From assembly GCF_055900595.2 (NCBI RefSeq), contig NZ_JBVWEU010000002.1: DNA of 64,000 nucleotides; one strand, written 5' to 3'. The DNA is from a plasmid. Below the pieces are notes generated by a model. The model saw only the letters and a list, made by a program, of their open reading frames with translations, was not told where the DNA came from and made no database searches. The position numbers were made by a program, and so were the translations under genes. Below are positions 7,440-55,668 of the stretch, piece after piece (the first letter of the stretch is position 1; every line of letters starts with the position of its first letter).

Positions 7440-8460
<1,021 letters not shown>

Positions 8461-9120
8461 AACAATTATTATCAACAACTTGGAAGGAGTAAGACTACCC
8501 GTGGCGATTCAATATTAGATCATTGATGGAGATATAAATGGCTCACTTTTTATCGGTTGTTGACGATACGTTTATCAAGTATACATGAAAATTTCTTCAT
8601 ACCAGCTATATGAGACGTTAAGACTAAAAATCTTACTCCCAAAATGACTATGTTGTTGCAGTTTGGTTTATTGACTCTTGTCTATAGTTCACCGAATGCC
8701 AAGATGAGGGAGCGAGGAACTTTACTGTCTACGCCTCTCTTCCTGGTTACAAAGACAAGCGTAAAACTCACCATCCATTAGAACTAAAGGCACTTTCCTG
8801 AGCAGAGTTTTCATCTGCAAGATAAAAGCTATTTTACAGCCGTAAAGTCCAGTGAAACGAAAGAGAGGTTAGTGAATTAATTACTTGATGTATTAAAGTA
8901 TAATGGGCGTAGATAACACCTTAATACGAAATCTTGTCAGACTTTCCCGGTAATTAGTAATACTGTTGAAACAAAGCGAGAGGGGGTTAGCCCAATTTAC
9001 GCAAATAAATAATAATCTTGATTATGATTAATTCCAAATAAGTATATTTTTCCAGTAGATGCTGGGCATTAACTAAGAAAACCCAGAATACCACTTTCAT
9101 TGTTATGGAAAACATGGACA

Positions 9121-22702: not shown

Positions 22703-22960
22703 TCAGCCCTGTTTAAAGCCCGGCTTGCCGTTTTTGGCTCGCCATTCCTTCACTTCTTTTACGATACCTTCAGGACTGTCCTCACGGTCATCCCTTGGAT
22801 AATAAATAAGATCAGAACCATCAGGGTGTTCAGCTAATCGACGAAATTCATCCACTAATTTATCATCATCAGCCTCAGTTTCACCTTCAGCCCGGCAGAT
22901 TTTTCTGACGAACTCCAGAAACTCCGCCTCGGTATAGTCAGAAATCGTTTTCTTTTCCAT
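22703..22960 (-). CDS. Nuclease-colicin-type immunity protein (Im family)
   Basis: 85 aa; [12 protein letters not shown] ... [12 protein letters not shown] ... GKPGFKQG closely parallels the DNase-colicin immunity proteins as I recall them; starts one nt after the toxin stop. Confidence 0.75.
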
Positions 22961-23296
22961 TTACTTATTTCCTCTGTGAATTTCAATATGATGCTTGGGT
23001 GTCACTACCCTGAGATTATCGATATCATAAACAGCGCCACCATCCGTAACGCGCTTGATATGGTGCAGTTCGAAACGTTCTCGTTCACCTACACGCTCTG
23101 ATTCAGGAACAAACGAAGATTTACCTTTTGTAACCAGAACCTTATTCTGATTTTTGAACTGCTTCAGTAACTCCGGATCTTTCCCCACTTCCATCCACAA
23201 CGCCTTACGGAACCACGGCAGCCTGGAGGCTGCAAATCGGGGTGTGGCAGAATATGAGCTTTCAGAGTAACCATCCAGAATGAGTTCCCATGTCAC
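22961..23296 (-). CDS. HNH DNase toxin domain (colicin E9/pyocin-type C-terminal nuclease), probably a truncated remnant
   Basis: 111 aa ending ...RERFELHHIKRVTDGGAVYDIDNLRVVTPKHHIEIHRGNK (HNH motif); no translocation or receptor domains upstream. Confidence 0.6.
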   Translation of the reverse strand: MTWELILDGYSESSYSATPRFAASRLPWFRKALWMEVGKDPELLKQFKNQNKVLVTKGKSSFVPESERVGERERFELHHIKRVTDGGAVYDIDNLRVVTPKHHIEIHRGNK

Positions 23297-35191: not shown

Positions 35192-35581
35192 ATGATAAAA
35201 CAAAAGGTATTTTTCTCAGGTACTGTACTAGCTATTTTTTTATCTCTCAGCAACGTATCTTTGGCTTCCGGCCTGGATAAAAACATGCAGTCTCTTGCCA
35301 AAAGTATGAGTATTCTACAATCTTCCAATGATAAATCATCACTATTAAATGCTCTTGAAATGATGGATAAATCTGTAGATTCTTCTATGAATATTATTCC
35401 TGAAAAGATAGATGTTAATGATAAAGTTTCTGTAGATAATTATAAGGAAGAGTTAAAAAAACTACAACATGAAATCAATATTGCAAAAAAGAAAGTTGAG
35501 GACGGGAATATAGAATCATTACGTGAGTCTCTGGATAAAATGAACGATATAAAACTTGAAGGTCACCGAAAATTCAGATGA
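35192..35581 (+). CDS. Secreted cytochrome b562-family protein
   Basis: ATG 35192 then signal peptide MIKQKVFFSGTVLAIFLSLSNVSLA; mature N-terminus ...DKNMQSL and C-terminus ...LEGHRKFR parallel the Met/His heme-ligand positions of cytochrome b562 as I recall it; AT-rich. Confidence 0.5.
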   Translation: MIKQKVFFSGTVLAIFLSLSNVSLASGLDKNMQSLAKSMSILQSSNDKSSLLNALEMMDKSVDSSMNIIPEKIDVNDKVSVDNYKEELKKLQHEINIAKKKVEDGNIESLRESLDKMNDIKLEGHRKFR

Positions 35582-35832
35582 TCTACAAAAATAAATTTTA
35601 ATATTTAAATACGGCAATATATTTTATCATGTATTGCCGTCTTGGCGTATTCTTTCCGTTCCATTCAATTGCATCTGGCATAACAAGAGAAATAGTAGAC
35701 TCCTCATTACTGCTGTTGTATAACTGCGCACCATAATCTGCTAGACTGGCCCCCTGAATCTCCAGACAACCAATATCACTTAAATAAGTGATAGTCTTAA
35801 TACTAGTTTTTAGACTAGTCATTGGAGAGCAG

Positions 35833-36198
35833 ATGATTGATGTCTTAGGACCGGAGAAACGCAGACGGCGTACTACACAGGAAAAGATCGCTATTGTTCA
35901 GCAGAGTTTTGAACCGGGAATGACGGTCTCCCTTGTAGCCCGGCAACACGGTGTGGCAGCCAGCCAGCTATTTCTCTGGCGCAAGCAATACCAGGAGGGA
36001 AGTCTTACTGCTGTGGCCGCAGGAGAGCAGGTCGTTCCTGCCTCTGAACTTGCTGCTGCCATGAAGCAGATTAAAGAACTCCAGCGCCTGCTCGGCAAAA
36101 AAACGATGGAAAATGAACTCCTTAAAGAAGCCGTTGAATATGGGCGTGCAAAAAAGTGGATAGCGCACGCGCCCTTATTGCCCGGGGATGGGGAGTAA
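35833..36198 (+). CDS. insC: IS2 transposase OrfA
   Basis: [56 protein letters not shown]... matches IS2 InsC as I recall it. Confidence 0.85.
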
Positions 36199-36821
36199 GC
36201 TTAGTCAGCCGTTGTCTCCGGGTGTCGCGTGCGCAGTTGCACGTCATTCTCAGACGAACCGATGACTGGAAAGATGGTCGCCGCAGCCGTCACTCCGATA
36301 ATACGGATGTGCTTCTCCGTATACACCATGTTATCGGAGAGCTGCCCACGTATGGTTATCGTCGGGTATGGGCGCTGCTTCGCAGACAGGCCGAACTTGA
36401 TGGTATGCCTGCGATCAATGCCAAACGTGTTTACCGGATCATGCGCCAGAATGCGCTGTTGCTTGAGCGAAAAACCGCTGTACCGCCATCGAAGCGGGCA
36501 CATACTGGCAAAGTGGCCGTGAAAGAAAGCAATCAACGATGGTGCTCTGACGGGTTCGAGTTCCGCTGTGATAACGGAGAAAAACTGCGAGTCACGTTCG
36601 CGCTGGACTGCTGTGACCGTGAGGCACTGTACTGGGCGGTCACTACGGGCGGCTTCGACAGTGAAACAGTACAGGACGTCATGCCAGGAGCGGTGGAACG
36701 CCGCTTCGGCAACGAGCTTCCGGCGTCTCCAGTAGAGTGGCTGACGGATAATGGTTCATGCTACCGGGCTAATGAAACACGGCAGTTTGCCCGGATGTTG
36801 GGGCTTGAACCGAAGAACACA
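36156..36821 (+). pseudogene. insD: IS2 transposase OrfB, 3'-truncated
   Basis: First about 222 aa match IS2 InsD; the ORF then reads through into unrelated ABC-ATPase sequence. Confidence 0.8.
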
Positions 36822-37292
36822 GAGTTGAGTGCGTCTATCCTGGAGAACGTTGCTGTTGTGCCTCAAAAAGCCGTTCTGGTGCAGGGAACTATTCGTGATA
36901 ATATTCTGTATGGAACCGATGACATTCTTCCCGATGATGAACTGTTTTGCATCCTGAATTCATTAGGGTTAATTAAAGAGGACTGCGGAGAACATTTCCT
37001 TGCTTTCCTAGACCGGGATATTAATCCTCTGGGTAGTGGTTTGAGTGGTGGAGAGATCCAGCGATTATGCATAGCCCGCGCCCTAGCCCGTAAGAAAAAG
37101 ATTATCGTACTTGATGAACCCACGGCCTCTATTGGCGAAGAACTCGCGATAAAGATCATTACCTATATCCGGCAGCATTGCCCTACCGTTATTATTACAA
37201 CTCATAATCCACGAATTCTGGAGCTCGCCGATCATTTTTTTGATGGTATGTCAAAGTCTTGCGTCATTGCTGGAGAAGGCAGAGACCAATAA
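36822..37292 (+). pseudogene. C-terminal fragment of an ABC-transporter ATP-binding domain
   Basis: ...[11 protein letters not shown] ... [15 protein letters not shown] ... [12 protein letters not shown] ... VIITTHNP; no Walker A or upstream portion. Confidence 0.55.
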
Positions 37293-37493
37293 ACCACACA
37301 CGTTAATTCATTTATATCTAATCGGGGTTGTACGCCGGAAACGCCGAAATTTCCGATACAGCGAATTTGTTGATTTTTGAAGCATGTTTGGAAGGTTTTG
37401 ACGTGTACGTTTATGGTGCAGTAAGTGAGAATTTATTCGTACCAGCCATATGATACGTTACGGGCAGTGATTTTTCGCGCTAGACAGCTATTT

Positions 37494-37969: not shown

Positions 37970-38248
37970 TCAAGCGCCCCCCTGGATGAGCGTGATGATT
38001 ACTGGCGGACCTTTGACGTTCCAGCAAATTCCCCTGTTCCACATAGGTTTCCAGATATGACCGGTTATTTTCACGTTCGGTGTACGTGTTACAGCTGCAT
38101 TATCAATATCATCAGGGATAAAATTGTAAGATCGTGGAAAATGTTTATTCATAGCCCGGATGATGGCTGTCTGTGCATCCTTTGTTCGGGCGCGGTGTTT
38201 CCATTCACGCCAGCCATCCACCTCAGAAATAATAACAGTAATCATCAA
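37970..38248 (-). CDS. Hypothetical protein
   Basis: 92-aa ORF between the Tn3-IR pair and the FinO-domain gene; no recognisable motif. Confidence 0.2.
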   Translation of the reverse strand: MMITVIISEVDGWREWKHRARTKDAQTAIIRAMNKHFPRSYNFIPDDIDNAAVTRTPNVKITGHIWKPMWNRGICWNVKGPPVIITLIQGGA

Positions 38249-38302
38249 AACCTCGTGTCGTTACTCAATTTTGATTCCATAGCGGGACAGCATTTCACAT
38301 AA

Positions 38303-38968
38303 TTATGCCCCGTTATGAATGCAGGCGTCCTTCAAATTGCTGTCCGGTGTGACAGTTTTCGATGGTTGGTTGCAACGAGCATCTTCTGTCTCTTTCATCC
38401 TGGCGTTATAACGCTGCGTGTGTTTTTCAAGTTTTGCCTGCGCATACAGCGCTTCTTCCTCCGTTACAGTTCCATGAACTTTGCCATCCAGACCATAACG
38501 CGGAGTACCTGCGACTGATATACGCTGCAGATATTTGTAACCGCCAGTAATCATCCTTACAGCACAATTCCATTCTTTTACAGTTAGTCCACACTCAGGA
38601 CTGGCCGAAATAAAAGCCATGACATCCTTTGAGATGCCTATTTTAAATGCATGATATCCCCCCTCTTCAGCCCGTAACTGAGGGAATGTTTTTTTAACAC
38701 AGTCCAGACTGTGTCGGATAAACTCATGATTCCATCTATTGTTCTTCTTTTTTTTCTTCTTCTTACGTCCTGTTTTTTTCTGTTGTTCCGGGGAACCGGC
38801 CACTGTGGCTGGTATTTCAGGAGGTAATGAGTCGGTTTTAAATTCCATTACTGGCGCTGGTTTTATATCATCAGGAACTGCCTGTACAGCATCATCCTGA
38901 TGAGAAAGAATTCGTCTTTTTTTCTTAATAATAACAACAGGTGACGGTTTCTTTGTAACACTGCCCAT
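38303..38968 (-). CDS. FinO/ProQ-domain protein (putative RNA chaperone) with lysine-rich N-terminal region
   Basis: C-terminal region (FPQLRAEEGGYHAFKIGISKDV...LTVKEWNCAVRMITGGYKYLQ...GTPRYGLDGKVHGTVTEEE) parallels the canonical FinO at 60264-60824; KKKKKKKNNRW tract; start taken at second ATG. Confidence 0.55.
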   Translation of the reverse strand: MGSVTKKPSPVVIIKKKRRILSHQDDAVQAVPDDIKPAPVMEFKTDSLPPEIPATVAGSPEQQKKTGRKKKKKKKNNRWNHEFIRHSLDCVKKTFPQLRAEEGGYHAFKIGISKDVMAFISASPECGLTVKEWNCAVRMITGGYKYLQRISVAGTPRYGLDGKVHGTVTEEEALYAQAKLEKHTQRYNARMKETEDARCNQPSKTVTPDSNLKDACIHNGA

Positions 38969-39070
38969 ATACACACCTCTGCGTATCGTTAATATATAAT
39001 GCACGACATACAGATAGTATATATCTGAGTCGGTAAAGTCACCAACAGAAGAATAATAACATGTATTTCA

Positions 39071-39349
39071 TTACTGTTCGCGAATTATCACTCTGGATTC
39101 CTTCCTGGTGACATAAGTACAGTTATCAGGTACATCTTCCATAATAAAAGACATTGCCCCGATTTTAACATTACTTCCGATTTTCACATTTAACCCAATA
39201 ATACATGTATGGGCACCAATATCGACATTATCACCAATAACAATATAGTTTTCCCTACTGTCAGAAACCTTTTCACCAATGGTTGTATTCTGCCGTATAA
39301 TGACATTCTCACCGATATCAACATTACCATGAATGACGATTCCTGCATG
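39071..39349 (-). pseudogene. C-terminal half of a hexapeptide-repeat (LbH) acetyltransferase gene, separated from its N-terminal half (54358-54678) by the IS1-bounded unit
   Basis: Reads HAGIVIHGNVDIGENVIIRQNTTIGEKV...IGDNVDIGAHTCII... directly from the IS1 end; the 9 bp TCCTGCATG abut the IS1 end. Confidence 0.6.
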
Positions 39350-39631
39350 GGTAATGACTCCAACTTATTGATAGTGTTTTATGTTCAGATAATGCCCGAT
39401 GACTTTGTCATGCAGCTCCACCGATTTTGAGAACGACAGCGACTTCCGTCCCAGCCGTGCCAGGTGCTGCCTCAGGTTCAGGTTATGCCGCTCAATTCGC
39501 TGCGTATATCGCTTGCTGATTACGTGCAGCTTTCCCTTCAGGCGGGATTCATACAGCGGCCAGCCATCCGTCATCCATATCACCACGTCAAAGGGTGACA
39601 GCAGGCTCATAAGACGCCCCAGCGTCGCCAC
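39350..39631 (-). mobile_element. IS1 fragment (right-end about 280 bp, inverted), truncated internally
   Basis: Starts GGTAATGACTCCAACTTATTGATAGTG; encodes the InsB C-terminus on the minus strand. Confidence 0.8.
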
Positions 39632-40486
<855 letters not shown>

Positions 40487-41095
40487 TAATTACACTGTGG
40501 GTTGACGCCGGAAGAATCAGAGAACAGATACCGTTCTTACTGTAAAACGTGGCTAATATTAATTGAGCACTGCAGTGTTCAGAGCACAAAGAAGAAAAAA
40601 GATGTGTGCGAATGCCTGTAATGTGTTAAAAGAATGTTCCGCGTTTCCGGTACGCTTTTCGTAACTAACAATGCAGGGTGACGTAACGCTGGTTGTGCCG
40701 GAAACGCGTCCCTCCCCCTATCTTTCCTGTTTGGATTTGCCCCTATATTTCTGGATTATCCGACAAAACCGGCGTGAAGTATTACTCTCGTCGCCCAGCA
40801 CCATAAGGATAACGCCCATAAAATCATGAAACTTTTCTTCCAGATTGGATACAATCAGGCCGAAACGGTGATGAATATTATCCAAATCTGATGGTTCGTA
40901 GCGTTTTCAGCCCCCAGATTCTGAGTTGCCTGTAGGGATGATTTCAATTCCCGATTTGTCTATCGCATAGAGAAAAAGAATTTCATTTCTGTTCACCAGA
41001 ACCCATGTAACCCACTCCAATTCGTTATTTATCTCACTGATTGCCCTTCATTTATCTCATTGATGCACCGAAAGGTAAAACTGCCATCCGGTGCA

Positions 41096-42025
41096 TCACG
41101 CTCGATGCATCAAATCCTGATAAATCCCCGTCAGTATTCCTTGTAAGCTAAATTCTCTTTTTATCCACTGAGTGACTTGACCGCTTGCCGAATGCCTGGT
41201 TGCCAACAGCATTCGTGAATCCTGACGTGGGTTGTGGATCTGCCGTGTCACCAGCAATGACTTTTCCATCGCTTCACGCACCATATAGTCTGGCAGAAAA
41301 CCGATTCCCTCCCCCAAGATCTGGCACTGAAGCTTAGTATTAAAGTCGGGAACCAGAATCGACTCTTGCCCGTGTAACAGCCAGCCGACTTTTTTGTTTA
41401 TAGTGTTTGCAGTGTCTTCCACCATGATGTTCGGGTACAGACGTAACTGACTCTCAGAAATGGGCTCAGGAATAAACGCCAGCGGATGAGCCGGAGAAAT
41501 CGCGAACAACCAACGAATCATGCCGATTTCAATGTAATCAATTCCACCACCGTCCAGTAACGTATCGGGCGCGCCAATGGCGATATCAGCCTGGTTATTA
41601 ATGAGTGAATCCCAGACGCCATTATACACCTCTGTAGTAATAGCTATCTGGCAGGTTGGAAAGTGTTCCCTGAGCACTTGCAGAAGCCGAGCTGTATGCT
41701 GAGGGGTATACAACAGTTGATTAATACAAATGCGCACCCGGGATTTAATTCCCTGAGCGATGGCATCAACTCTACGTATGATGGAGTGGTAATCGTTGAG
41801 CAGGTCAGTTGCTTTGCAAAAAAGGTAGTGCCCGGGCTCGGTCAGCTCAATGCTACGGGTAGTTCGGGTAAAAAGCACCACGTCAAGCCCCATTTCCATA
41901 CGCTTGATAGTGTAACTAATTGCCGATGTGGTTAAGCCCAGTTCCTTCGCCGCCTTGCTGAAACTTCTATAGCGGGCAGCCATAGTAAATGCCAGTAAGT
42001 TTTCTTCCGTAAATATTGAATTCAT
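41096..42025 (-). CDS. LysR-family transcriptional regulator, divergent from cluster 2
   Basis: Start taken at internal ATG 42025 (MNSIFTEENLLAFTMAARYRSFSKAAKELGLTTSAISYTIKRME...); HTH plus LysR substrate-binding domain. Confidence 0.75.
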   Translation of the reverse strand: MNSIFTEENLLAFTMAARYRSFSKAAKELGLTTSAISYTIKRMEMGLDVVLFTRTTRSIELTEPGHYLFCKATDLLNDYHSIIRRVDAIAQGIKSRVRICINQLLYTPQHTARLLQVLREHFPTCQIAITTEVYNGVWDSLINNQADIAIGAPDTLLDGGGIDYIEIGMIRWLFAISPAHPLAFIPEPISESQLRLYPNIMVEDTANTINKKVGWLLHGQESILVPDFNTKLQCQILGEGIGFLPDYMVREAMEKSLLVTRQIHNPRQDSRMLLATRHSASGQVTQWIKREFSLQGILTGIYQDLMHRA

Positions 42026-42412
42026 CTTTCTTTCCTCTGGCGACAATACACATACACAACATGATGATTGTTGAATGTATTTGTAATTCTTATAACCGAC
42101 AATCAGTTTTGAAAAAACTAACACCGTATTTACATTTAATTTGAAGGAAATCACACATCTGAATTTTAATTACAGGCAGCTATCCGTGCTGCAGACCACC
42201 TTTATTTATATGACTGCGGATTAATGGCTAAAATATCCCCAGCTATAATAGAAATATTGCACTATATCACACTCTCTTATTATTGTTAATTTTGTTTCAA
42301 TAATTCATGGTCTAATGATGAGTAAATTTTAAATGGATGGTGCTCTATGCATTCTGTTGCTATTCTTGGCTTGTTATATTTGTAAAATCTTAAAAAGAGC
42401 AGGAGATCGATT
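42026..42412. promoter_or_regulatory. Divergent control region between the LysR gene and the cluster 2 operon
   Basis: 387-bp AT-rich intergenic region between divergently oriented genes; inferred from arrangement only. Confidence 0.35.
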
Positions 42413-43018
42413 ATGTCCAATAAAGAACTCATTACAGAATTTCTGCTGGCGGCAGAACAAGGTAATTCCGATGGATTAAAATCATGCCTTGATAAAAAGG
42501 TTGATATTAATGCGACTAACCGCGAGGGGCGTACTGCAATTATTATTGCCAGTCTGAATAAACATTATGACTGCGTTTCTTTATTGATTTCCGCAGGTGC
42601 TGATATTAATAAACAAGATCAAACTTGTTTTAATCCCTTCCTGATTGGCTGCCTGAATAATGATTTAACACTGTTGCGTACGGTATTACCGGCTAACCCC
42701 GACCTTAATTGCCTAACCCGTTTTGGCGGTGTTGGTATTACACCTGCCTGCGAAAAAGGCCATGTCGAGATTGTACGTGAATTGCTGATGCGTACTGATA
42801 TCAATGTCAACCATACTAATTTTGTTGGCTGGACGCCGCTCCTAGAGGCCATCGTGCTGAATGACGGCGGTGAAAAGCAGCAGGAGATCGTCAAACTGTT
42901 GCTTGAGCATGGCGCAAACCCGCACATGACGGATAAATACGGTAAAACCCCGCTGGAGCTGGCGCGAGAAAAAGGCTACCACAAAATTGCCGAGTTGCTG
43001 ATTTCGGCTGGAGCCTGA
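42413..43018 (+). CDS. Ankyrin-repeat protein (YahD-like)
   Basis: 201 aa; repeated ...G.TAL..A...GH...V..LL..GAD.N.. units. Confidence 0.75.
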   Translation: MSNKELITEFLLAAEQGNSDGLKSCLDKKVDINATNREGRTAIIIASLNKHYDCVSLLISAGADINKQDQTCFNPFLIGCLNNDLTLLRTVLPANPDLNCLTRFGGVGITPACEKGHVEIVRELLMRTDINVNHTNFVGWTPLLEAIVLNDGGEKQQEIVKLLLEHGANPHMTDKYGKTPLELAREKGYHKIAELLISAGA

Positions 43019-43103
43019 CAACAGGAGCACGATTATCGCTATATTATCACGGCAATCTTTTCGGGCACTAACCGCAGACTGCGCGTTTCTCACTTTTCGG
43101 GGA

Positions 43104-43952
43104 ATGGGCCAGGTTGAACAGGTTTTTTCCCATGCGGTAAATCTGTTAATACCTGAACAGCAGCGACTGCTGACGTTACTGAGTGAGGATTGTGATAACG
43201 CACCTAACAGTTGTCGTTTAGCACTGACACATTATGAAGACCTTTTTCACCCCGGTGAACAGGTCAATTTTAGCGGGTCTGGAATAACTGTTGGAAATGA
43301 TAAATGGATAGAAATAACCGGTTGTCAGATGTGGCGAATACCACGGTGGACATCTGATTCAGCAAGCCTTGCCAAAGTCGGCTGGCAGCATTGGGAAGAG
43401 TTTATCCGCCAACAACTAAGAAGCAACGACACATTATTTCTGTACCAGGGTGACAATCCATTTTATCAGGAAATTTCTCGCCAATTACTCAACCGCCGAA
43501 AAAATTTGCTGAAGGCGTTGTGTACAGGAGAAAACATCACTGCGGCAGTCAACCAGTTAATTGGTCTTGGAATAGGGCTGACGCCATCATCGGATGATTA
43601 TTTAGTAGGTTTAAGCACTATTTTATTTATTCAAGGACATCCACTAAGGAAGTATAGATACGATTTCTTAGCAGCATTACAACTTGCAGGAAATAACATA
43701 ACGCTTCTCAGCAAAATAACGTTAGAGGAAGCATTTAATCAGCGTTATCGGGAAAGAGTCGGACGGCTACTGAACCAATTTATTACTGAGCCACAACCCA
43801 TTTCTACGCAATATGTTACTGACATAAAAAATATAGGCTCAAGTTCTGGATGCGACATGCTGTATGGCATGGCGGATGCCTGCGCCCTGAGCCACAGGTC
43901 CGGAGGTAATTATGTCAATCAGGATAGTTGTAAAAAAAAACACGTATTTTGA
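43104..43952 (+). CDS. DUF2877-family protein (YahE/YlbF-like)
   Basis: 282 aa; paralog of 27254-28114. Confidence 0.55.
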   Translation: MGQVEQVFSHAVNLLIPEQQRLLTLLSEDCDNAPNSCRLALTHYEDLFHPGEQVNFSGSGITVGNDKWIEITGCQMWRIPRWTSDSASLAKVGWQHWEEFIRQQLRSNDTLFLYQGDNPFYQEISRQLLNRRKNLLKALCTGENITAAVNQLIGLGIGLTPSSDDYLVGLSTILFIQGHPLRKYRYDFLAALQLAGNNITLLSKITLEEAFNQRYRERVGRLLNQFITEPQPISTQYVTDIKNIGSSSGCDMLYGMADACALSHRSGGNYVNQDSCKKKHVF

Positions 43953-45459
43953 TTCTGTTTCACTGATGTCTATCTCCACGCGCGCAAATAAGCTTGATGG
44001 AGTTGAGCAGGCATTTGTTGCTATGGCGACAGAGATGAATAAGGGGGTGCTGAAGAATCTCGGTCTGCTGACCCCTGAGCTGGAAGAGGCGAAAAGTGGC
44101 GATCTGATGATTGTCATTAAAGGTACCAGCGAGGAGGCGAACGAGCGGACGCTAATAGCGATTGATGAGCTGTTTGCGCATAAAGAACAGGGAGGCCAGC
44201 ACGAAGCACGCTATGCCACGATTGCCAGTGCGAAGAAGCATGCTCCAGAGAGTAATCTGGCGGTGATCTCTGTCAATGGCCTGTTTGCTGCTCGTGAAGC
44301 TCGTCAGGCACTACAAAATAACCTCAATGTTATGCTGTTTTCTGACAACGTCTCTCTTGAGGACGAGCTGGAACTCAAGCATCTGGCACATGAAAAAGGG
44401 TTGTTGATGATGGGGCCTGATTGTGGAACCGCCATCATTAACGGCGCAGCGTTGTGTTTTGGCAATGCAGTGCGTCGCGGCAACATCGGAATCATTGGTG
44501 CCTCCGGTACGGGTAGCCAGGAGCTGAGCGTACGCATTCACGAATTTGGCGGCGGGATTTCCCAGCTGATTGGGACAGGTGGACGCGATATGAGTGAAAA
44601 AATTGGCGGCCTGATGATGCTTGACGCGATTAGCATGCTGGAGGCCGATCCACAAACTGAGATCATTACGCTTATATCCAAACCTCCTGCACCAGCGGTA
44701 GCCCGTAAGGTGCTGGAACGTGCGCGCACCTGTCACAAGCCTGTGGTGGTGTGTTTCCTCGGACGTGAGTCCACCCCTGCGGATGAAGAAGGCCTACAGT
44801 TTGCCCGCGGTACTAAAGAGGCTGCCTTGAAAGCGGTACTGTTGACTGGTGTGAAAAAAGAGAGTCTGGATTTGCATCCGCTCAACTGGCAGCTGATTGA
44901 AGAGGTTCGCTCCCGTCTGACTCCACAACAAAAGTATATCCGTGGCCTGTTCTGTGGTGGCACGTTATGCGATGAAGCGATGTTTACTGCCATGGAAAAA
45001 CTCTCGGATGTGTATAGCAATATTCACCCGAATCCGGCGTTCCGCCTTACAGATCTCAACCGTAGCGTGGCGCATACCTTCCTCGATTTCGGCGATGATT
45101 ATTTTACCAACGGCAAACCACATCCGATGATCGATCCCACCAATCGCATTACCCGGCTCTTGCAGGAAGCACAGGATCCTGAAGTTGGCGTGATCGTGAT
45201 GGACTTCATTCTTGGATTTGGATCACATGAAGATCCGGTTGGAGTGATGCTGGATACAATTGTTGAAGCCAAAGAAATTGCTGCCGCAGACGGTCGCCCG
45301 CTTGAGATCCTCGGCTATGTGCTGGGAACCGACCTTGATACACCGTCGCTGAAAAAACAGTGTCAGATGTTGACCGATGCCGGGGTTATTTGGGCAAGCA
45401 GTAGCACCAACACCGGATTACTGGCACGTGAATTTATATTTAAAGGGGAGGAAGGCTGA
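43912..45459 (+). CDS. FdrA-like protein (YahF-like)
   Basis: 515 aa; paralog of 28209-29768. Confidence 0.7.
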   Translation: MSIRIVVKKNTYFDSVSLMSISTRANKLDGVEQAFVAMATEMNKGVLKNLGLLTPELEEAKSGDLMIVIKGTSEEANERTLIAIDELFAHKEQGGQHEARYATIASAKKHAPESNLAVISVNGLFAAREARQALQNNLNVMLFSDNVSLEDELELKHLAHEKGLLMMGPDCGTAIINGAALCFGNAVRRGNIGIIGASGTGSQELSVRIHEFGGGISQLIGTGGRDMSEKIGGLMMLDAISMLEADPQTEIITLISKPPAPAVARKVLERARTCHKPVVVCFLGRESTPADEEGLQFARGTKEAALKAVLLTGVKKESLDLHPLNWQLIEEVRSRLTPQQKYIRGLFCGGTLCDEAMFTAMEKLSDVYSNIHPNPAFRLTDLNRSVAHTFLDFGDDYFTNGKPHPMIDPTNRITRLLQEAQDPEVGVIVMDFILGFGSHEDPVGVMLDTIVEAKEIAAADGRPLEILGYVLGTDLDTPSLKKQCQMLTDAGVIWASSSTNTGLLAREFIFKGEEG

Positions 45460-46877
45460 TGAGCCAGACACTGTTTAATCAGCCGCTGAACGTTATTAAT
45501 GTCGGTATCGAAATGTTCAGCGATGACATGAAAAAGCAGAATGTACCGGTAACCCAACTTGACTGGACACCGCCAGGCCAAGGAAACATACAAGTGGTAA
45601 CGGCACTGGACGACATTGCCGCTTCACCACTGGCAGACAAAATTGCAGCTGCTAATCAGCTGGCGCTGGAACGCATTATCCAGTCGCATCCTGTGCTAAT
45701 TGGCTATGATCAGGCGATCAACGTCGTGCCGGGTATGACCCGTAACACTATCCTTCACGCCGGGCCGCCAATCCACTGGGAAAAAATGTGCGGCGCAATG
45801 AAGGGCGCAGTAACCGGGGCTCTGGTATTTGAAGGACTGGCGAAAGATCTGGATGATGCCGCCGAACTAGCTGCTTCAGGTGAAATCATCTTCTCTCCGT
45901 GCCACGAACATGACTGTGTCGGCTCAATGGCGGGTGTCACGTCTGCATCGATGTTTATGCACATCGTCGAGAACAAAACCTATGGAAACCGCGCATATAC
46001 CAATATGAGCGAGCAGATGGCAAAGATCCTGCGTATGGGCGCTAACGACCAGAGCGTTATAGAGCGTCTTAACTGGATGCGAGATGTACTGGGACCTATG
46101 TTGCGCGATGCTATGAAGCTGGCGGGCGAAATCGATCTGCACTTGATGTTAGCGCAGGCGCTGCATATGGGCGATGAGTGCCATAACCGCAACAACGCCG
46201 GGACGGCGCTGCTGATTCAGACGCTGACGCCGTGGATTATTCAGACTGGCTACCCTGTTGAGCAGCAGCGTGAGGTGTTCGAGTTTGTCCTCAGTAGTGA
46301 TTACTTCTCAGGACCAACATGGATGGCAATGTGTAAAGCCGCAATGGACGCTGCGCACGGCATTGAATACAGCACCGTGGTGACAACGATGGCACGCAAT
46401 GGTGTTGAGTTCGGTCTTCGTATTAGCGGTTTGCCGGGCCAGTGGTTTACCGGTCCGGCGCAGCAGGTGATTGGGCCGATGTTTGCGGGCTATAAGCTAG
46501 AGGATTCCGGACGTGATATCGGTGATAGTGCAATTACCGAAACCTACGGCGTTGGCGGTTTCGCTATGGCGACGGCACCAGCTATTGTGTCACTGGTGGG
46601 CGGAACAGTTGAGGAAGCTATTGATTTCTCACGTAAAATGAGAGAAATCACTCTCGGAGAAAACCCCAACGTCACCATTCCCCTGCTTGGTTTTATGGGC
46701 GTACCGACCGCTATCGATATTACACGTGTAGGCAGTACAGGCATTCTGCCGGTAATTAACACAGCCATTGCGCACAAAGACGCAGGGATCGGCATGATCG
46801 GCGCAGGAATTGTTCACCCGCCGTTCACTTGTTTTGAAAAGGCGATCCTCAACTGGCGTGACCACTACTGCCAATAA
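45459..46877 (+). CDS. DUF1116-family protein (YahG/YlbE-like)
   Basis: 472 aa; start overlaps upstream stop; paralog of 29765-31189. Confidence 0.65.
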   Translation: MSQTLFNQPLNVINVGIEMFSDDMKKQNVPVTQLDWTPPGQGNIQVVTALDDIAASPLADKIAAANQLALERIIQSHPVLIGYDQAINVVPGMTRNTILHAGPPIHWEKMCGAMKGAVTGALVFEGLAKDLDDAAELAASGEIIFSPCHEHDCVGSMAGVTSASMFMHIVENKTYGNRAYTNMSEQMAKILRMGANDQSVIERLNWMRDVLGPMLRDAMKLAGEIDLHLMLAQALHMGDECHNRNNAGTALLIQTLTPWIIQTGYPVEQQREVFEFVLSSDYFSGPTWMAMCKAAMDAAHGIEYSTVVTTMARNGVEFGLRISGLPGQWFTGPAQQVIGPMFAGYKLEDSGRDIGDSAITETYGVGGFAMATAPAIVSLVGGTVEEAIDFSRKMREITLGENPNVTIPLLGFMGVPTAIDITRVGSTGILPVINTAIAHKDAGIGMIGAGIVHPPFTCFEKAILNWRDHYCQ

Positions 46878-46989
46878 CAATAACCGGGGCTAACGCAGTT
46901 AGCCCCACAGTAGCGGAAAACGTTGTTTACCTTCAGGGCTGGGCGATCTCCATGATCGCAAACGATGCTTAACCTGTTAAGGAGATTCC

Positions 46990-48540
46990 ATGAACAGCAT
47001 AAAACTAGAATGGAAACGTGGTGACTGGGCGGCTTACTTTGGACTGATGACCAACAATCTGACTAACCTGCTGACAATGATGGGTCTGCTAATTTTTGTC
47101 GTCGGAATCCCTACTGAAATTGTCTATGGACGCATTGCGCCTGCCTTTGGTCTTGCAGTGCTGGCGGCCAGTGTCTGCTACTCCTGGTTTGGTCTACAGA
47201 TGGTGAAGAAAACCGGTCGTAGCGATGTAACGGCGCTGCCGTCTGGACCGAGCGCACCCTCAATCTTTACCGTGACATTCCTGGTGCTGATGCCGGTTTA
47301 TCAGCAAACCAAAGATGCCAACTTTGCTATTCAGATAGGATTGGTGTGGTGCTTTGTCGAAGCGTTGATCCTGGTCGGTGGCTCCTTCCTGGGTGAGACT
47401 ATCCGCAAGATGATCCCGCGTACAGTGCTGCTTTCTTGTCTGTCCGGACTGGGGTTATTACTGCTGGCAATGAACCCGATGCTGCAAGCGTTCGAAGCGC
47501 CGACAGTTTCTTTCATCGTCCTGTTATTGATCTTCATTAACTGGTTCGGTAAGAAGCCGATTTTTCCCCATATTCCTACCGGTTTGCTGTTGCTGATTGC
47601 TGGTACGTCCCTAGCGTGGATATCCGGTTTACAAAGCCCGGAAGACATTAAAGCGTCGATGTCTTCCTTCGGCTTCAACCCGCCGGAAATTCATGTAAGG
47701 AGCTTCCTGCAAGGTTTGCCGCACGCTCTGCCATATCTGGCTTCTGCAGTTCCTTTGGGCCTGGCTAACTACATTTTTGACCTCGAGAACATTGAAAGTG
47801 CGCACGCGGCTGGTGATGAATACAACACCCGTAAGGTCATGATGGCGAACGGCTTTGCCTCCATGCTCGGTTGCATGCTGGGTAATCCGTTCCCGGTAAC
47901 CGTATATGTTGGGCATGCAGGCTGGAAAGCTATGGGCGCTAGTATCTGCTATACCCTCGCATCAGGCATCACTATGTTCCTGGTGCCATTGTTTGGGTTG
48001 GGCGCGTTTATGCTCGCCATTATTCCCATGACTGCTATAGTGCCAATTCTGGTTTTTATCGGTGTGGTAACCGCCAATCAGGTGGTGCGAGAAACTCCTA
48101 AAGTCGAGGTTCCCGTCATTTTCATCTGTCTGTTCCCATGGGTCGCCAACTGGGCATTGACCATCGTTAACAGCGTGATGGGCGCAGCCGGAACATCCGC
48201 TGAGAAACTTGGTAGCGACCTGTTGCACAGCAAAGGCGTCTATTACGATGGACTGATGCATCTGGGAAGCGGTGCACCGCTGGCCAGCATGCTGTGGGGA
48301 TGCATTGCTATCTTTGCCATTATGAATAAGCCGCTGCGCGGGGCGATAGCTGCATCCTTTGGAGCACTGTTATCGCTGTTTGGCGTGATTCACTCCCCAG
48401 CGGTTGGCTTTGCGGAAGGCAGCTCGATTGTGTTTGTTGTGGCCTACCTGATGATGCTTGCTATGTTTGCCCTCAAGCATGTTATTGATAGCCGTGAAAC
48501 AGTGGCTGCGTCTGAGCAGGAAGAGACTAAAACGACCTGA
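46990..48540 (+). CDS. Polytopic permease (nucleobase/NCS2- or AzgA-like; family uncertain)
   Basis: 516 aa with 12 or more hydrophobic segments; sits between the DUF1116 and carbamate kinase genes. Confidence 0.5.
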   Translation: MNSIKLEWKRGDWAAYFGLMTNNLTNLLTMMGLLIFVVGIPTEIVYGRIAPAFGLAVLAASVCYSWFGLQMVKKTGRSDVTALPSGPSAPSIFTVTFLVLMPVYQQTKDANFAIQIGLVWCFVEALILVGGSFLGETIRKMIPRTVLLSCLSGLGLLLLAMNPMLQAFEAPTVSFIVLLLIFINWFGKKPIFPHIPTGLLLLIAGTSLAWISGLQSPEDIKASMSSFGFNPPEIHVRSFLQGLPHALPYLASAVPLGLANYIFDLENIESAHAAGDEYNTRKVMMANGFASMLGCMLGNPFPVTVYVGHAGWKAMGASICYTLASGITMFLVPLFGLGAFMLAIIPMTAIVPILVFIGVVTANQVVRETPKVEVPVIFICLFPWVANWALTIVNSVMGAAGTSAEKLGSDLLHSKGVYYDGLMHLGSGAPLASMLWGCIAIFAIMNKPLRGAIAASFGALLSLFGVIHSPAVGFAEGSSIVFVVAYLMMLAMFALKHVIDSRETVAASEQEETKTT

Positions 48541-48566
48541 ATAGCCTGCAAACGGAAGATAATTCT

Positions 48567-49529
48567 ATGAAAGAACTTGTGGTCGTTGCCATTGGTGGCA
48601 ACAGCATTATCAAAGATAACGCCAGCCAGTCGATTGAGCATCAGGCGGAGGCGGTGAAGGCCGTCGCCGATACGGTTCTGGAAATGCTGGCTTCCGATTA
48701 CGACATTGTGCTGACCCACGGCAACGGGCCGCAGGTCGGTCTGGATTTACGCCGCGCGGAGATAGCCCACGAGCGCGAAGGGCTACCCTTAACGCCGCTG
48801 GCGAACTGTGTGGCGGATACGCAAGGCGGCATTGGCTATCTGATCCAGCAGGCGCTGAACAACCGGCTGGCGCCTCACGGCGAGAAAAAAGCCGTCACCG
48901 TGGTGACTCAGGTGGAAGTGGATAAAAACGATCCGGGGTTTGTCCATCCCACCAAGCCCATCGGTGCATTCTTTAGTGAAAACCAGCGTGATGAACTACA
49001 AAAGGCAAACCCTGACTGGCGTTTTGTTGAAGATGCCGGACGGGGCTATCGCCGCGTGGTCGCCTCGCCGGAACCGAAACGTATTGTCGAAGCACCTGCC
49101 ATTAAGACTCTGATCCAGCAAGGCTTTGTGGTGATTGGCGCGGGCGGCGGTGGCATTCCGGTGGTGCGTACTGACGCAGGGGATTACCAAAGCGTGGACG
49201 CGGTTATCGACAAAGATCTCTCTAGCGCGCTACTGGCTCGCGAAATTCACGCCGACATTCTGGTGATCACCACCGGCGTGGAAAAAGTGAGTATTCATTT
49301 TGGGAAACCCAACCAGCATGCACTGGATACAGTGGATGTCCTAACGATGGCCCGTTACATGCAGGAGGGTCACTTCCCGCCTGGGAGTATGTTACCGAAG
49401 ATTCTTGCCAGTCTGGAGTTCCTGGAACGTGGAGGTAAAAGAGTGATTATCACCACGCCTGAATGCCTGTCCGCGGCACTGCGTGGCGAAACAGGCACCC
49501 ATATTATCCACTCCCAAGAGGAGACGTAA
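48567..49529 (+). CDS. Carbamate kinase (YahI-like)
   Basis: 320 aa; AIGGNSI ... THGNGPQVG ... GAGGGGIPVV; paralog of 31182-32138. Confidence 0.8.
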   Translation: MKELVVVAIGGNSIIKDNASQSIEHQAEAVKAVADTVLEMLASDYDIVLTHGNGPQVGLDLRRAEIAHEREGLPLTPLANCVADTQGGIGYLIQQALNNRLAPHGEKKAVTVVTQVEVDKNDPGFVHPTKPIGAFFSENQRDELQKANPDWRFVEDAGRGYRRVVASPEPKRIVEAPAIKTLIQQGFVVIGAGGGGIPVVRTDAGDYQSVDAVIDKDLSSALLAREIHADILVITTGVEKVSIHFGKPNQHALDTVDVLTMARYMQEGHFPPGSMLPKILASLEFLERGGKRVIITTPECLSAALRGETGTHIIHSQEET

Positions 49530-50626
49530 ATTAAGGAAAGCGACCGCCGCCGTGAATTTTTAATGTTCATTGCAGATTATCGTGGGCTGGAAATGATAAC
49601 GGTTGGGGAGTTATTGTTTAGTTGCTAAAACAGAACGATAACCAACCCCAACCGTTCTCAATTTCGAATACTATCTTTTCCATTTATCTCTGGATAGGCT
49701 TTGACGTCGTCCCTACTGAGTAAAATCCCCCTCATCATCCACCTAAAACCGATTGAAAACGGTCATTACTCTTGTGGCAAACAGGCTAAAGCCGTTCACG
49801 ATGCTTCACTTCGCACCTTATCGTAATGAACAATACTGGTATTTCCAGTTCAGTTACGCCTACCCGTCTACCGCATTCTTTGCCCTAACTACGGCATAGT
49901 TCGGGATTATATCAGCTGGCTAAAGCCTTATGCTCATCAGACCACATGACTCATTGAGCATGTTGAGGCGTTACTCAAAATCTTGCCGATTAAACATATT
50001 TCGTAATTTCTTACCCTGCACTAGCATATCATCAATACTATCGACAAACGTCAGTTGCAAATAGAGGTCACAGGGTCTGATTGATGTACTGCCAAGGCCG
50101 GGTCATGAAAGAGTTTGCCCTGTTCAAAGCTCATCGTTACGCACCGTCGTAGCCGATGCGGATACTCATCAATCCTCTGGATAGGTGAGGTGCGTAGTAG
50201 AGAAGCTCGGTCGTTTTTCGTTAATCTGAATCAGTACTGTCAACATATTCAAGTCGTTAATATGGATATGAATACCTCCTTTGACCTAGAGGTACAGATG
50301 CACTACCCCCCAAGCTGTCAACGACGGATGAAAAGTGGCTCTTCCGCAACCTGGATGGAGATTTTCATGCCAGTGGACTCATGACCCTCTGCCTGAGTAG
50401 TTCAAATCCGGCTCGACCATACATCTGGCCTTTCAGCATTTTTAGCCAATTTACATGACTTTCGACACCCCCCATTATTCCAGCGACTGCTGATTGCCTC
50501 ACATATAGCCGCAGCATCAGCTGCCATCCTTGCAGCCACGCGCCGAAGTTACCACTTTCTCGTTGCTCTTTTAACCACTCCCTCCATGGGTCCAGAAGTC
50601 CTCACTCTGGAGGCCGGGTTGACATT

Positions 50627-51439
50627 TCAGGGAATGTTCCTGAACACACCCAGAGACTGTCTGTCACACGTGATAAGCCTGTAATACGGGATAAGCCTGT
50701 AATACGGGATATTTCCCCTGAACCCACATCCCTTGTTATGTAGTGCCATAACCTCTGTCCAACGCTGATGCCGTTTTTGGCGGGTTTGCTGTTTAAGGCG
50801 TTCCGGACGACGGAGCGATGCTACAGGCACAGACAGTACTGGCTTAGGTGATTTCTTTGGTGACAACCCACTGGCAACAAGACGTATCAGAGGCATCTGT
50901 CTGTACATCATTCGTTCAGGCGCATCGCCAATATTTTTTAGCCGGTGCCATCGAGCTGCTATCTGTCTGGCCTGAGGTGCACCTTCACGTGATGCTGTCG
51001 CATAGACTCCGCCACGGTCACATGAGACAACCTGTATTTCCGGATATTTTCTGAACCAGGTCGCCAGCGTACTCTGCTCGCAACCGGGAAGCAGGACGAG
51101 GGGACGGTGAGTATAAAGATTGACGATTAACGTACCGTAATGGTAGCCCCGATGCCACGCCCACTCATCAATACCGACATGAGGCGCGCCTGACTGTTTC
51201 GTCTCCGGGGTATTAATAACCCTGCGAAGAAGAGTATCAGCACTGCAACGGAGCCCCACTGCCGTTGCTGCCTGTTTCCCGGCCTCACCTCCGGCTATTA
51301 ATCCCAGTTGATGTTGTAAATTTTGTAACACCTGTGAAGAATGCTGGGAGTGAACCGGCGAAGGGGGCAAGCGACCCGGCAAAAATTTTACGTGAACAAG
51401 CCGGGTTACGGCAGTACCAGTGGCGGACGGAAAATACAA
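50627..51439 (-). pseudogene. ISL3-family transposase fragment (N-terminus missing), with an in-frame tandem duplication near the C-terminus
   Basis: ...GIDEWAWHRGYHYGTLIVNLYTHRPLVLLPGCEQSTLATWFRKYPEIQVVSCDRGGVYA...; NIPYYRLIPYYRL from a direct 18-bp duplication; upstream end cut near the IS1 left end. Confidence 0.45.
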
Positions 51440-51685
51440 GCCATAGCGTCTGCCCTGAGCAGGGTAGATGCTGTATCCGGCGCCGACGATAACTATGAAC
51501 AGAGTCGCTACGCTTAAAGCATTCAGGACTTGTGCTGTTTTGCGTTTTCCGTGGAGATGGAGGGTTATACCGTCAGAGCTAATAATTTGTCGACTGCATC
51601 TCCATCCGCAAGGTAACTGTAGAAGTGTCTGGTGATGCTGCCAACTTACTGATTTAGTGTATGATGGTGTTTTTGAGGTGCTCCA

Positions 51686-53992
<2,307 letters not shown>

Positions 53993-54357
53993 CTAAATCG
54001 CGCCAGCGCTGGCTGTTTTACGCGTATGACAGTCTCCGGAAGACGGTTGTTGCGCACGTATTCGGTGAACGCACTATGGCGACGCTGGGGCGTCTTATGA
54101 GCCTGCTGTCACCCTTTGACGTGGTGATATGGATGACGGATGGCTGGCCGCTGTATGAATCCCGCCTGAAGGGAAAGCTGCACGTAATCAGCAAGCGATA
54201 TACGCAGCGAATTGAGCGGCATAACCTGAATCTGAGGCAGCACCTGGCACGGCTGGGACGGAAGTCGCTGTCGTTTTCAAAATCGGTGGAGCTGCATGAC
54301 AAAGTCATCGGGCATTATCTGAACATAAAACACTATCAATAAGTTGGAGTCATTACC

Positions 54358-54678
54358 TCCTGCATGATGAGGTAACATGAGGCCTTTACCAATCCGCGCG
54401 CCCAGGCCGATATCACATCCATACCGTTCCATAAGTGCATTTTTTATCTTTATCGCACATTTCCTTTGTTTTTGGTTTCCAGAGATAAACATCTCATTGG
54501 CCAGGCGCCACCACATCAGAAAGCCTCGTTGTCTCTGCAACCCGTTTCTTATCAGGCGGTGTAAGACAAACTTATCCCGCATGATGACTTCGGCTTTCCA
54601 GTATTCTGACAGATTACGACTTTTACCTGACAATAAAAAGGTGGCAATATGAAAATAAGCTAATGGATTTTTCATCAT
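54358..54678 (-). pseudogene. N-terminal half of the hexapeptide-repeat (CysE/WcaB-like) acetyltransferase gene interrupted by the IS1-bounded unit
   Basis: MMKNPLAYFHIATFLL...WRLANEMFISGNQKQRKCAIKIKNALMERYGCDIGLGARIGKGLMLPHHAGG then IS1; joins in frame with 39071-39349 once the 9-bp duplication is removed. Confidence 0.6.
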
Positions 54679-54781
54679 AAAAACGACCTTAAAGAATAAA
54701 GAAAATATTCTGTATTGTGGAATAAAATAACATAACTATCAGAAATACTTTTAAAGTAATATCAGTCAGCTTTAAAGATAA

Positions 54782-55069
54782 CTATCTCATTCTCTCACTG
54801 GCGAGATTATAAACGTTACTACGTTCACGTTTACCTACCGCGACAACCGCAATAATTAGCATGTCATCAATAACCTGATAGACCAGACGAAACCCCGATG
54901 CGCGAAGTTTGATTTTGTAGCAGTCTTTTAATCCACGCAGTTTTGCGGAAGGAATATGAGGATTTTCGCTGCATTTCTTTAGTTTTTTCGCAAACTGCTG
55001 TTGAATGGATTTATCCAGTTTCAGCCATTCTTTGAGCGCATCATCCCTGAATTTTACTGTATAAGTCAT
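54782..55069 (-). CDS. RelE/ParE-family toxin
   Basis: 95 aa; ...GFRLVYQVIDDMLIIAVVAVGKRERSNVY; overlaps antitoxin gene by 4 nt. Confidence 0.75.
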   Translation of the reverse strand: MTYTVKFRDDALKEWLKLDKSIQQQFAKKLKKCSENPHIPSAKLRGLKDCYKIKLRASGFRLVYQVIDDMLIIAVVAVGKRERSNVYNLASERMR

Positions 55070-55427: not shown

Positions 55428-55668
55428 TTCTGATGCCGCGTGAGCGGCATGGAAGGCGGTATAATGTAGCTACATATGGCACAAGAGTAAAACCGCCGAA
55501 GCCCGGCGTAAGCCGGTACTGATTGATAGATTTCACCTTACCCATCCCCGTCCTGCTAAGCCATGCCCGCTGTCAGCCATGAGAGAGCTTATGTGCGCGG
55601 TCGGAGTGGTCCCGACGAGGGTTTACCCGAAGTCGGGGCGTATCTCCGCGTTAGCGGGCCGTTAGGGC
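55428..55668 (+). other. Second, shorter copy of the structured IS110-3'-flank-like segment (no transposase gene attached)
   Basis: Aligns with 17036-17160 and 17330-17425 (e.g. shared GTGCGCGGTCGGAGTGGTCCCGACGAGGGTTTACCCGAAGTCGGG); lacks the about 165-bp middle segment. Confidence 0.4.

Follow-up and report, generated by a model that had tools for sequence, protein, structure and literature searches.

An in-frame IS2–ABC exporter fusion on a ColV-type plasmid as a probable deletion scar of a lost lasso-peptide cluster

Lasso peptides are the class of peptides that contains microcin J25, and their precursors carry threonine at position -2, glycine (or alanine, serine, or cysteine) at core position 1, and aspartate or glutamate at core position 7–9. 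In the microcin J25 locus, which we drew from pJKHS016_3 as the reference, mcjA is divergent from mcjBCD, and the ring of the peptide is formed by eight residues. Bacteriocin exporters of the CvaB/MchF type are also found on ColV plasmids, and CvaB is a 698-aa, peptidase-containing protein. IS2 is a separate matter from these exporters; its transposase belongs to the IS3 family, in which the catalytic Glu of the DDE triad falls within InsD codons 223–301. Here, we describe a locus in which part of IS2 is joined to part of an exporter gene whose intact relatives sit in a predicted lasso-peptide cluster.

The window analyzed is a 64,000-nt stretch of plasmid DNA (NZ_JBVWEU010000002.1). It contains a 378-aa open reading frame on the plus strand (36156..37292), in which InsD residues 1–222 are followed in frame by residues 417–574 of the lasso-cluster ABC exporter. 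The frame begins with a GTG codon at 36156, which is the conventional InsD start, and its position within IS2 matches that in K-12 IS2A. Pfam placed HTH_21 at amino acids 64–103, rve at 124–222 (65 bits), and ABC_tran at 226–324; the rve match stops at profile position 97 of 102, i.e., at the junction, and the ABC_tran match covers profile positions 55–137 of 137, the C-terminal two-thirds. The NCBIfam model for IS2 transposase TnpB matched amino acids 1–227 with 508 bits. By BLASTP, amino acids 1–222 corresponded to the same residues of K-12 InsD1 (211 of 233 identical in an alignment that overruns the junction by a few residues), and amino acids 221–378 corresponded to residues 417–574 of an intact 574-aa ABC exporter (157 of 158 identical). 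An Asn-Thr pair at the fusion point is common to both parents. The first-pass annotation had read this frame as InsD for about 222 residues and then an ABC tail, and the Pfam, NCBIfam, and BLASTP matches to both parents confirm a real fusion of part of InsD with the C terminus of an ABC exporter. The ABC motifs that it had named were located at residues 296–300 (LSGGE), 316–321 (Walker B, IIVLDE), and H350 (H-loop), and a Q-loop is present at Q237. No Walker A motif was found in the 378-aa frame; in the parent, it is PSGFGKST at residues 385–392, within the deleted part.

It had also been proposed that the IS2 right end and the 5′ part of an exporter gene were removed, and the extents of the two pieces bear this out: only nt 1–1079 of the 1,331 nt of IS2 are left in the window, and codons 1–416 of a 574-aa half-transporter are missing. 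The IS2 piece (35742..36820, plus strand) was delimited by blastn of K-12 IS2A (1,331 bp) against the whole window, which gave one match with 95.1% identity and 53 substitutions and no further IS2 piece elsewhere in the 64 kb. The left inverted repeat, insC, the A6G frameshift site, and InsD codons 1–222 are collinear with K-12 IS2A, whereas the window copy is a 95%-identity variant that ends at nt 1079 and does not have the right inverted repeat; the final 252 bp, including that repeat and InsD codons 223–301, are gone. The insC gene (IS2 orfA; 35833..36198, plus strand) is apparently intact, with an open frame that maps onto K-12 insC1 and matches Pfam HTH_Tnp_1 (69.8 bits), and the A6G heptamer was read from the sequence at 36150–36156. 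With a single terminal inverted repeat and an InsD match that ends at residue 222 of 301, the fragment is predicted to be unable to transpose.

The two parents meet at a 5-bp microhomology, AACAC (36816..36820, plus strand), which was defined by comparing the window with IS2A and with the intact ABC gene. It corresponds to IS2 nt 1075–1079 and to nt 1249–1253 of the ABC gene: IS2 reads CCGAAG AACAC GGCGG, the ABC gene reads CGGATT AACAC AGAGTT, and the window reads CCGAAG AACAC AGAGTT. Microhomology of 5 bp or more has a chance of approximately 0.005 at a random joint. The joint is in frame because AAC-AC (Asn-Thr) has the same codon phase in both parents, an outcome with a chance of 1/3 for any joint. 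The IS2 breakpoint is internal and not at an end of the element; therefore, the joint is attributed to illegitimate recombination, and adjacent deletion by the transposase was rejected on the same ground. We found the exact junction in 105 of 5,426 complete E. coli genomes (approximately 2%) and on at least 72 PLSDB plasmids, among them pAPEC-O2-ColV, pAPEC-O2-211A-ColV, and several Klebsiella pneumoniae plasmids. It is thus not an assembly artifact, and its identity across the 105 genomes traces it to one ancestral event.

Downstream of the joint, the remnant of the exporter gene, here called D (36816..37292, plus strand; 477 bp including the stop codon), has 99.4%–99.6% nucleotide identity to five intact genes. 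What survives is the final 157 codons of a gene for a 574-aa half-transporter in which membrane domain and ATPase are fused; the missing codons encode the whole membrane domain as well as Walker A, so that, of the motif set of a functional ABC ATPase, the Q-loop, signature, Walker B, and H-loop are kept. When distant relatives of the tail were searched for, the matches began exactly at the junction base inside full-length genes and extended past the gene end. Only two differences in the tail are available for judging selection, too few for a verdict, one synonymous and one non-synonymous. The synonymous base at 36965 is shared by the window and the relic of pAPEC-O2-211A, unlike the intact D genes, from which that relic differs by this single base. 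The other, G>A at 36846 (Asp>Asn, residue 231), is in the window but in none of seven copies compared (two relic and five intact).

The tail had been suspected to derive from a bacteriocin or microcin export gene, and this holds insofar as intact copies of D close a lasso-peptide cluster, but the gene is not of the CvaB/MchF type. The export-type origin stands: an importer-type ATPase was looked for as the contrary outcome and was rejected, given that parent D is a fused membrane-domain/ATPase exporter. CvaB and MchF are likewise bacteriocin exporters, found on ColV plasmids, and generic ATPase-domain motifs are common to them and D. However, the tail aligned with CvaB at 34% identity over 61 aa only, in these generic motifs, and on the 574-aa parent, which is shorter than CvaB, Pfam found ABC_tran alone and no C39 peptidase domain; an origin from CvaB/MchF was ruled out on these two grounds. 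McjD, the exporter and self-immunity protein encoded in mcjABCD, offers a closer likeness in architecture and setting, since parent D has approximately 575 aa, no peptidase domain, and the last place in a lasso cluster on E. coli plasmids. The two differ in that D is only 24% identical to McjD (over approximately 500 aa, E = 3e-25), and the window keeps merely the final 157 codons. In sequence searches of the PDB with full-length D or with its membrane domain alone, generic ABCB/Atm1 exporters scored at or above the McjD level, and McjD was not listed. By sequence, D thus appears to stand no nearer to McjD than to generic exporters of the ABCB/Atm1 type, and our claim that it takes the McjD role is argued from genomic context and not from membership of the McjD sequence family.

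That context is a four-gene cluster, A-C-B-D, which intact D closes in pRHB14-C14_3 and pEND_Eco19019-2. Another intact copy is in pVR50B (NZ_CP011136.1, 35370–39481). All four genes lie on the same strand, unlike the divergent arrangement of mcjA and mcjBCD. Gene A encodes the precursor (62 codons), recognized by a conserved motif and with no family match in Pfam or NCBIfam. Gene C encodes a 462-aa Asn-synthase-like cyclase that matches Pfam PF00733 (Asn_synthase) with 26.9 bits against a cut-off of 21; the dedicated NCBIfam cyclase models scored well under their cut-offs on this protein. Gene B encodes a 227-aa lasso B2 protease (NF033537 lasso_biosyn_B2, 82.8 bits against a cut-off of 33; PF13471 Transglut_core3, 60 bits), and gene D encodes the 574-aa exporter (Pfam ABC_tran). 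D stood beside lasso B, C, and the precursor in all 11 intact-cluster plasmids examined, and A, C, and B are absent from the window. The precursor, B, and C align with McjA, McjB, and McjC, with 23% identity between C and McjC and 37% between B and McjB over the catalytic C terminus. Homologs of D at 47%–70% identity, from Salmonella, Klebsiella, and a read-archive assembly, retain the C-B-D arrangement, and a small precursor open reading frame was found upstream of it in the Salmonella and read-archive loci.

Four precursors, one of them from a Salmonella salamae plasmid, whose exporters are 47%–89% identical share the invariant motif AS..TN directly followed by G.G.G..(I/V/M)E, and their tails vary. 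The motif lines up with Thr -2, Gly1, and the ring Glu of McjA, and the residues used to recognize lasso precursors are present as Thr -2, Gly1, and Glu9. The E. coli core is predicted to be GTGGGSIIEGSYTVYRCDGGSVPSRPFGPPFCP, 33 residues with two cysteines in the tail, and its predicted ring would run from Gly1 to Glu9 and so contain nine residues, one difference from the eight of microcin J25. On the strength of the family matches of B and C together with the conserved precursor motif, we regard parent gene D as the putative exporter of a predicted lasso-peptide cluster distantly related to mcjABCD. The intact cluster occurs on 23 PLSDB plasmids; among complete E. coli genomes, 24 (approximately 0.4%) have it, in every case on a plasmid. 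The exact precursor sequence occurs on at least 1,000 contigs. The cluster appears to be uncharacterized so far; an incomplete literature search, in which absence of evidence is all that a null result conveys, gave no match for the precursor sequence, the RefSeq accessions, or a link between lasso peptides and ColV or APEC.

The remnant is still joined to 201 bp of the native 3′ flank of D (37293..37493, plus strand), as shown by alignment with intact-cluster plasmids. Window positions 36816–37493 are unbroken against four of the five such plasmids compared, and the match to pEND_Eco19019-2 stops at 37323. Further downstream, synteny, a Pfam ProQ match, and annotation identify a native backbone segment (37970..39349, minus strand) with a small hypothetical gene, a ProQ/FinO-family gene (38303–39004), and one half of a serine acetyltransferase gene, interrupted by IS1 at 39350. 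Positions 37977–39349 match the sequence downstream of the intact cluster in NZ_CP027324.1 (12670–13977), and this match resumes at 54358–54916 and 55432–57114, past a 15-kb insertion (39350–54357) with inverted IS1 copies at its ends and a flanking 9-bp duplication, TCCTGCATG. The NZ_CP027324.1-like stretch holds the small open reading frame, the ProQ/FinO gene, the serine acetyltransferase gene, toxin-antitoxin genes, and a RepFII repA. Right-hand synteny is therefore shared with intact-cluster plasmids, which places the remnant in its native backbone position. The suggestion of a ColV-like backbone is also supported, as 15321–57108 is collinear with pAPEC-O2-211A-ColV, and 1–15300 matches plasmid regions annotated as a MacB-family efflux pump with its outer-membrane and adaptor subunits, together with an SDR oxidoreductase and RepB, which we read as the etsABC/hlyF/RepFIB region.

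Taken with the joint itself, the frame is very probably a non-functional deletion scar that records a lasso cluster lost from the ancestor of a ColV-type plasmid. That ancestor would have carried a complete A-C-B-D cluster adjoining the ProQ/FinO, serine acetyltransferase, and RepFII backbone, with an IS2 copy upstream in the same orientation. A single illegitimate recombination at AACAC would have joined IS2 nt 1079 to D nt 1249, removing the IS2 right end with InsD codons 223–301 and, judging from the intact relatives, also A, C, B, and the first 416 codons (1,248 bp) of D; the InsD frame, by chance in phase, would then continue to the stop codon of D. We infer that the event was an intramolecular deletion, that these genes made up the content between the breakpoints, and that peptide production and immunity were lost with them.

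The junction alone does not tell an intramolecular deletion from an inter-replicon recombination. IS2 recurs beside this cluster. A screen of the 11 intact-cluster plasmids for IS2 gave only one copy inside gene C, described below, and 120-bp remnants in pRHB14-C14_3 and in a second plasmid with a different backbone. Each remnant is the left end of IS2, interrupted by a Tn3-family element, and is found upstream of the intact cluster in the same orientation; because two backbones show this arrangement, a local deletion is the more economical route. The 120-bp remnants carry both diagnostic bases of the window variant, but there are only two such bases in 120 bp, and so they are only a hint of common ancestry. 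The left flank of the window IS2 (the cytochrome b562 side) is unlike that of the IS2 remnant in pRHB14-C14_3; therefore, at least one further rearrangement separates the lineages. This difference from the flank seen beside intact clusters could also be explained by illegitimate recombination between replicons, through a cointegrate or fusion of a plasmid carrying a metabolic island, cytochrome b562, and IS2 with one carrying the lasso cluster and RepFII, and the plasmids are indeed highly mosaic, with multiple replicons and IS1 composites. We consider such a fusion unlikely given the same-variant, same-orientation IS2 remnant upstream of the cluster on two backbones, an argument whose weight is limited by the two diagnostic bases. 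No pre-deletion intermediate was seen among the 11 intact-cluster plasmids: in none is an intact cluster preceded by an intact IS2 that is flanked on its left as in the window. No empty site was found either, as all 84 inspectable PLSDB records with the cytochrome b562 flank run into IS2 (in one, IS1 cuts IS2 after 15 bp).

In pZ1323HEC0011-2, a complete IS2 that is 98.1% identical to the window fragment lies in the same orientation inside gene C, which raises the alternative that IS2 first inserted into the lasso cluster itself and that a later internal deletion between IS2 nt 1079 and D nt 1249 was accompanied by replacement of the left flank, by rearrangement at the IS2 end or homologous exchange between IS2 copies. 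This course of events is more doubtful still than the fusion of two replicons: at least two extra events are required, the pZ1323HEC0011-2 cluster is another variant (93% identity, versus 99.5% between the window tail and pRHB14-C14_3), and the window has no gene C sequence to the left of IS2. A local deletion from an upstream IS2 remains our preferred route.

Whatever the route, the fusion most likely does nothing. Its ABC piece is predicted to be unable to bind ATP normally or to export because it has neither a membrane domain nor Walker A, and the missing motifs suggest that the fusion is neither expressed nor functional. Production of InsC may persist, and -1 frameshifting could in principle extend it into an InsC-InsD′-D′ polypeptide, but nothing points to a role for such a product. 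A new functional protein, e.g., a regulator that combines the DNA-binding part of InsC/InsD with the dimerization surface of the ABC domain, would account for a frame that is open over 378 codons downstream of an intact insC and that is kept in more than 100 genomes. We regard this as extremely improbable. An in-frame joint has a one-in-three chance of arising, and the fusion has lost Walker A, the membrane domain, the last part of rve, and the IS2 right end. The carrier plasmids are recent relatives and near-identical throughout, so neither the similarity of the copies nor the open frame in many plasmids is informative about selection. Moreover, the one coding difference seen in the window is non-synonymous and occurs in none of the other copies compared, and in another plasmid, the IS2 fragment has been lost almost wholly to IS1. 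The biological meaning of the scar is instead historical: this lineage would once have had a locus for lasso production and immunity, lost it in a single event, and passed on the loss widely.

Scars that join an IS fragment to a gene fragment are an ordinary kind of object, and this one is already annotated publicly as a pseudogene; what is new is which two parents it came from, where each was broken, and which locus was lost. In the PGAP annotation, the region is a single frameshifted "IS3 family transposase" pseudogene that takes in the ABC tail unremarked. An earlier annotation called the final 166 codons an "ATP-binding cassette domain-containing protein," and other submitters named the 378-aa product "IS2 element protein." These public labels miss the chimera of two parents, which may be counted wrongly among transposases as well as among transporters; the scar is of consequence chiefly in this respect. 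Recognized for what it is, the junction offers a clean, single-origin marker for one ColV-type plasmid lineage; it has also spread into Klebsiella plasmids. The scar also leads to an intact lasso cluster only distantly related to microcin J25, possibly a new family of lasso microcins. Tentatively, the remnant may point to an uncharacterized plasmid-borne family of lasso peptides, similar to class I microcins, in E. coli, Salmonella, and their relatives; ColV plasmids might then be former producers that lost both production and exporter-based immunity, and APEC/ExPEC strains carrying them could be targets of strains with intact clusters.

Other bacteriocin genes lie close to both the remnant and its intact relatives. 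A fragment of a pore-forming colicin gene, together with its immunity gene, adjoins intact lasso clusters, and the window holds a second bacteriocin remnant at 22703–23296, a DNase-domain fragment of a nuclease colicin with an intact immunity gene. Because of these two finds, we view the regions as graveyards of bacteriocin modules. Among such decayed IncF bacteriocin loci, the DNase-colicin remnant keeps its immunity gene, whereas the lasso remnant is predicted to keep no immunity function since the exporter itself was truncated.

The intact form of the locus was a four-gene lasso-peptide cluster, located at 6366–10477 in plasmid pRHB14-C14_3 (L002; CP057820.1) and encoding the precursor A (62 aa), the asparagine synthase-like cyclase C (462 aa), the protease B (227 aa) and the ABC exporter D (574 aa), the parent of the chimeric tail. 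The intact cluster occurs in E. coli on approximately 23 plasmids, which represent several replicon types and include pEND_Eco19019-2 (L003), NZ_CP027324.1 (L010) and the plasmids L009, L011 and L020–L025; frameshifts split C or B in several cluster plasmids (L009, L011 and L025). The predicted core of the E. coli precursor is GTGGGSIIEGSYTVYRCDGGSVPSRPFGPPFCP, with a Gly1–Glu9 ring and two cysteines in the tail. All four proteins have only generic names in the annotation, and no paper on the cluster was found in the literature searched.

Diverged sister clusters were found in Salmonella (L016, 3645–7728; GCA_011790145.1), in Logan SRR26673765 (L018, 3609–7728), on an S. salamae plasmid (L015, 5072–9171; CP053317.1), where gene D is frameshifted, and in Klebsiella sp. 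S69 (L019). Gene order in the four is as in the E. coli cluster, with D identities of 47–89%; their precursors conserve Thr-2, Gly1 and Glu9 and differ in their tails. A colicin M gene lies near the lasso cluster in Klebsiella sp. S69.

Plasmid pZ1323HEC0011-2 (L012; NZ_CP148386.1) is an independent case of IS-driven decay at the same lasso locus. Here, a 93%-diverged copy of the cluster carries a complete IS2 in gene C (10522–11852), 98.1% identical to the IS2 variant of the window, and a further IS3-family element also interrupts it; the remainder has been lost. In an IncK2/Z plasmid (L014; NZ_CP119733.1), IS1 has left only the first 15 bp (6843–6857) of the IS2 next to the cytochrome b562 gene, and the chimeric ORF is wholly gone.

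Within the chimeric ORF, a G>A change at window position 36846 replaces Asp with Asn at residue 231. This change was absent from every relic copy (those sharing the IS2/D junction) and intact copy compared, yet five public contigs carry the exact 378-aa sequence. On the left flank, the DNA separating IS2 from the cytochrome b562 gene measures 164 bp in the window (35578–35741) versus ~735 bp in the 2006 reference plasmid pAPEC-O2-ColV (L013, 6679–7413; NC_007675.1), where the stretch is annotated as a fimbrial-like protein. The same region of that record also has numerous small differences and gaps; the length difference could be a real indel or could reflect the quality of the older sequence.

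A 15-kb segment between inverted IS1 copies (window 39350–54357), flanked by a 9-bp target duplication, TCCTGCATG, interrupts a gene for serine acetyltransferase, the two halves of which adjoin each other in NZ_CP027324.1. The cargo of the segment is a second LysR/ankyrin/DUF2877/fdrA/DUF1116/carbamate-kinase cluster, paralogous to that at ~26–33 kb of the window. The counterpart in pAPEC-O2-211A-ColV is ~7 kb longer, with a Tn3-family element.

The window contains a second bacteriocin relic at 22703–23296 (minus strand), in which a colicin/pyocin immunity gene is intact (PF01320, 131 bits) and the nuclease colicin upstream is reduced to its C-terminal DNase domain (PF21431). The adjoining genes (18424–22918), annotated merely as ABC transporter and MFS transporter, are presumably the iron-uptake genes eitABCD.
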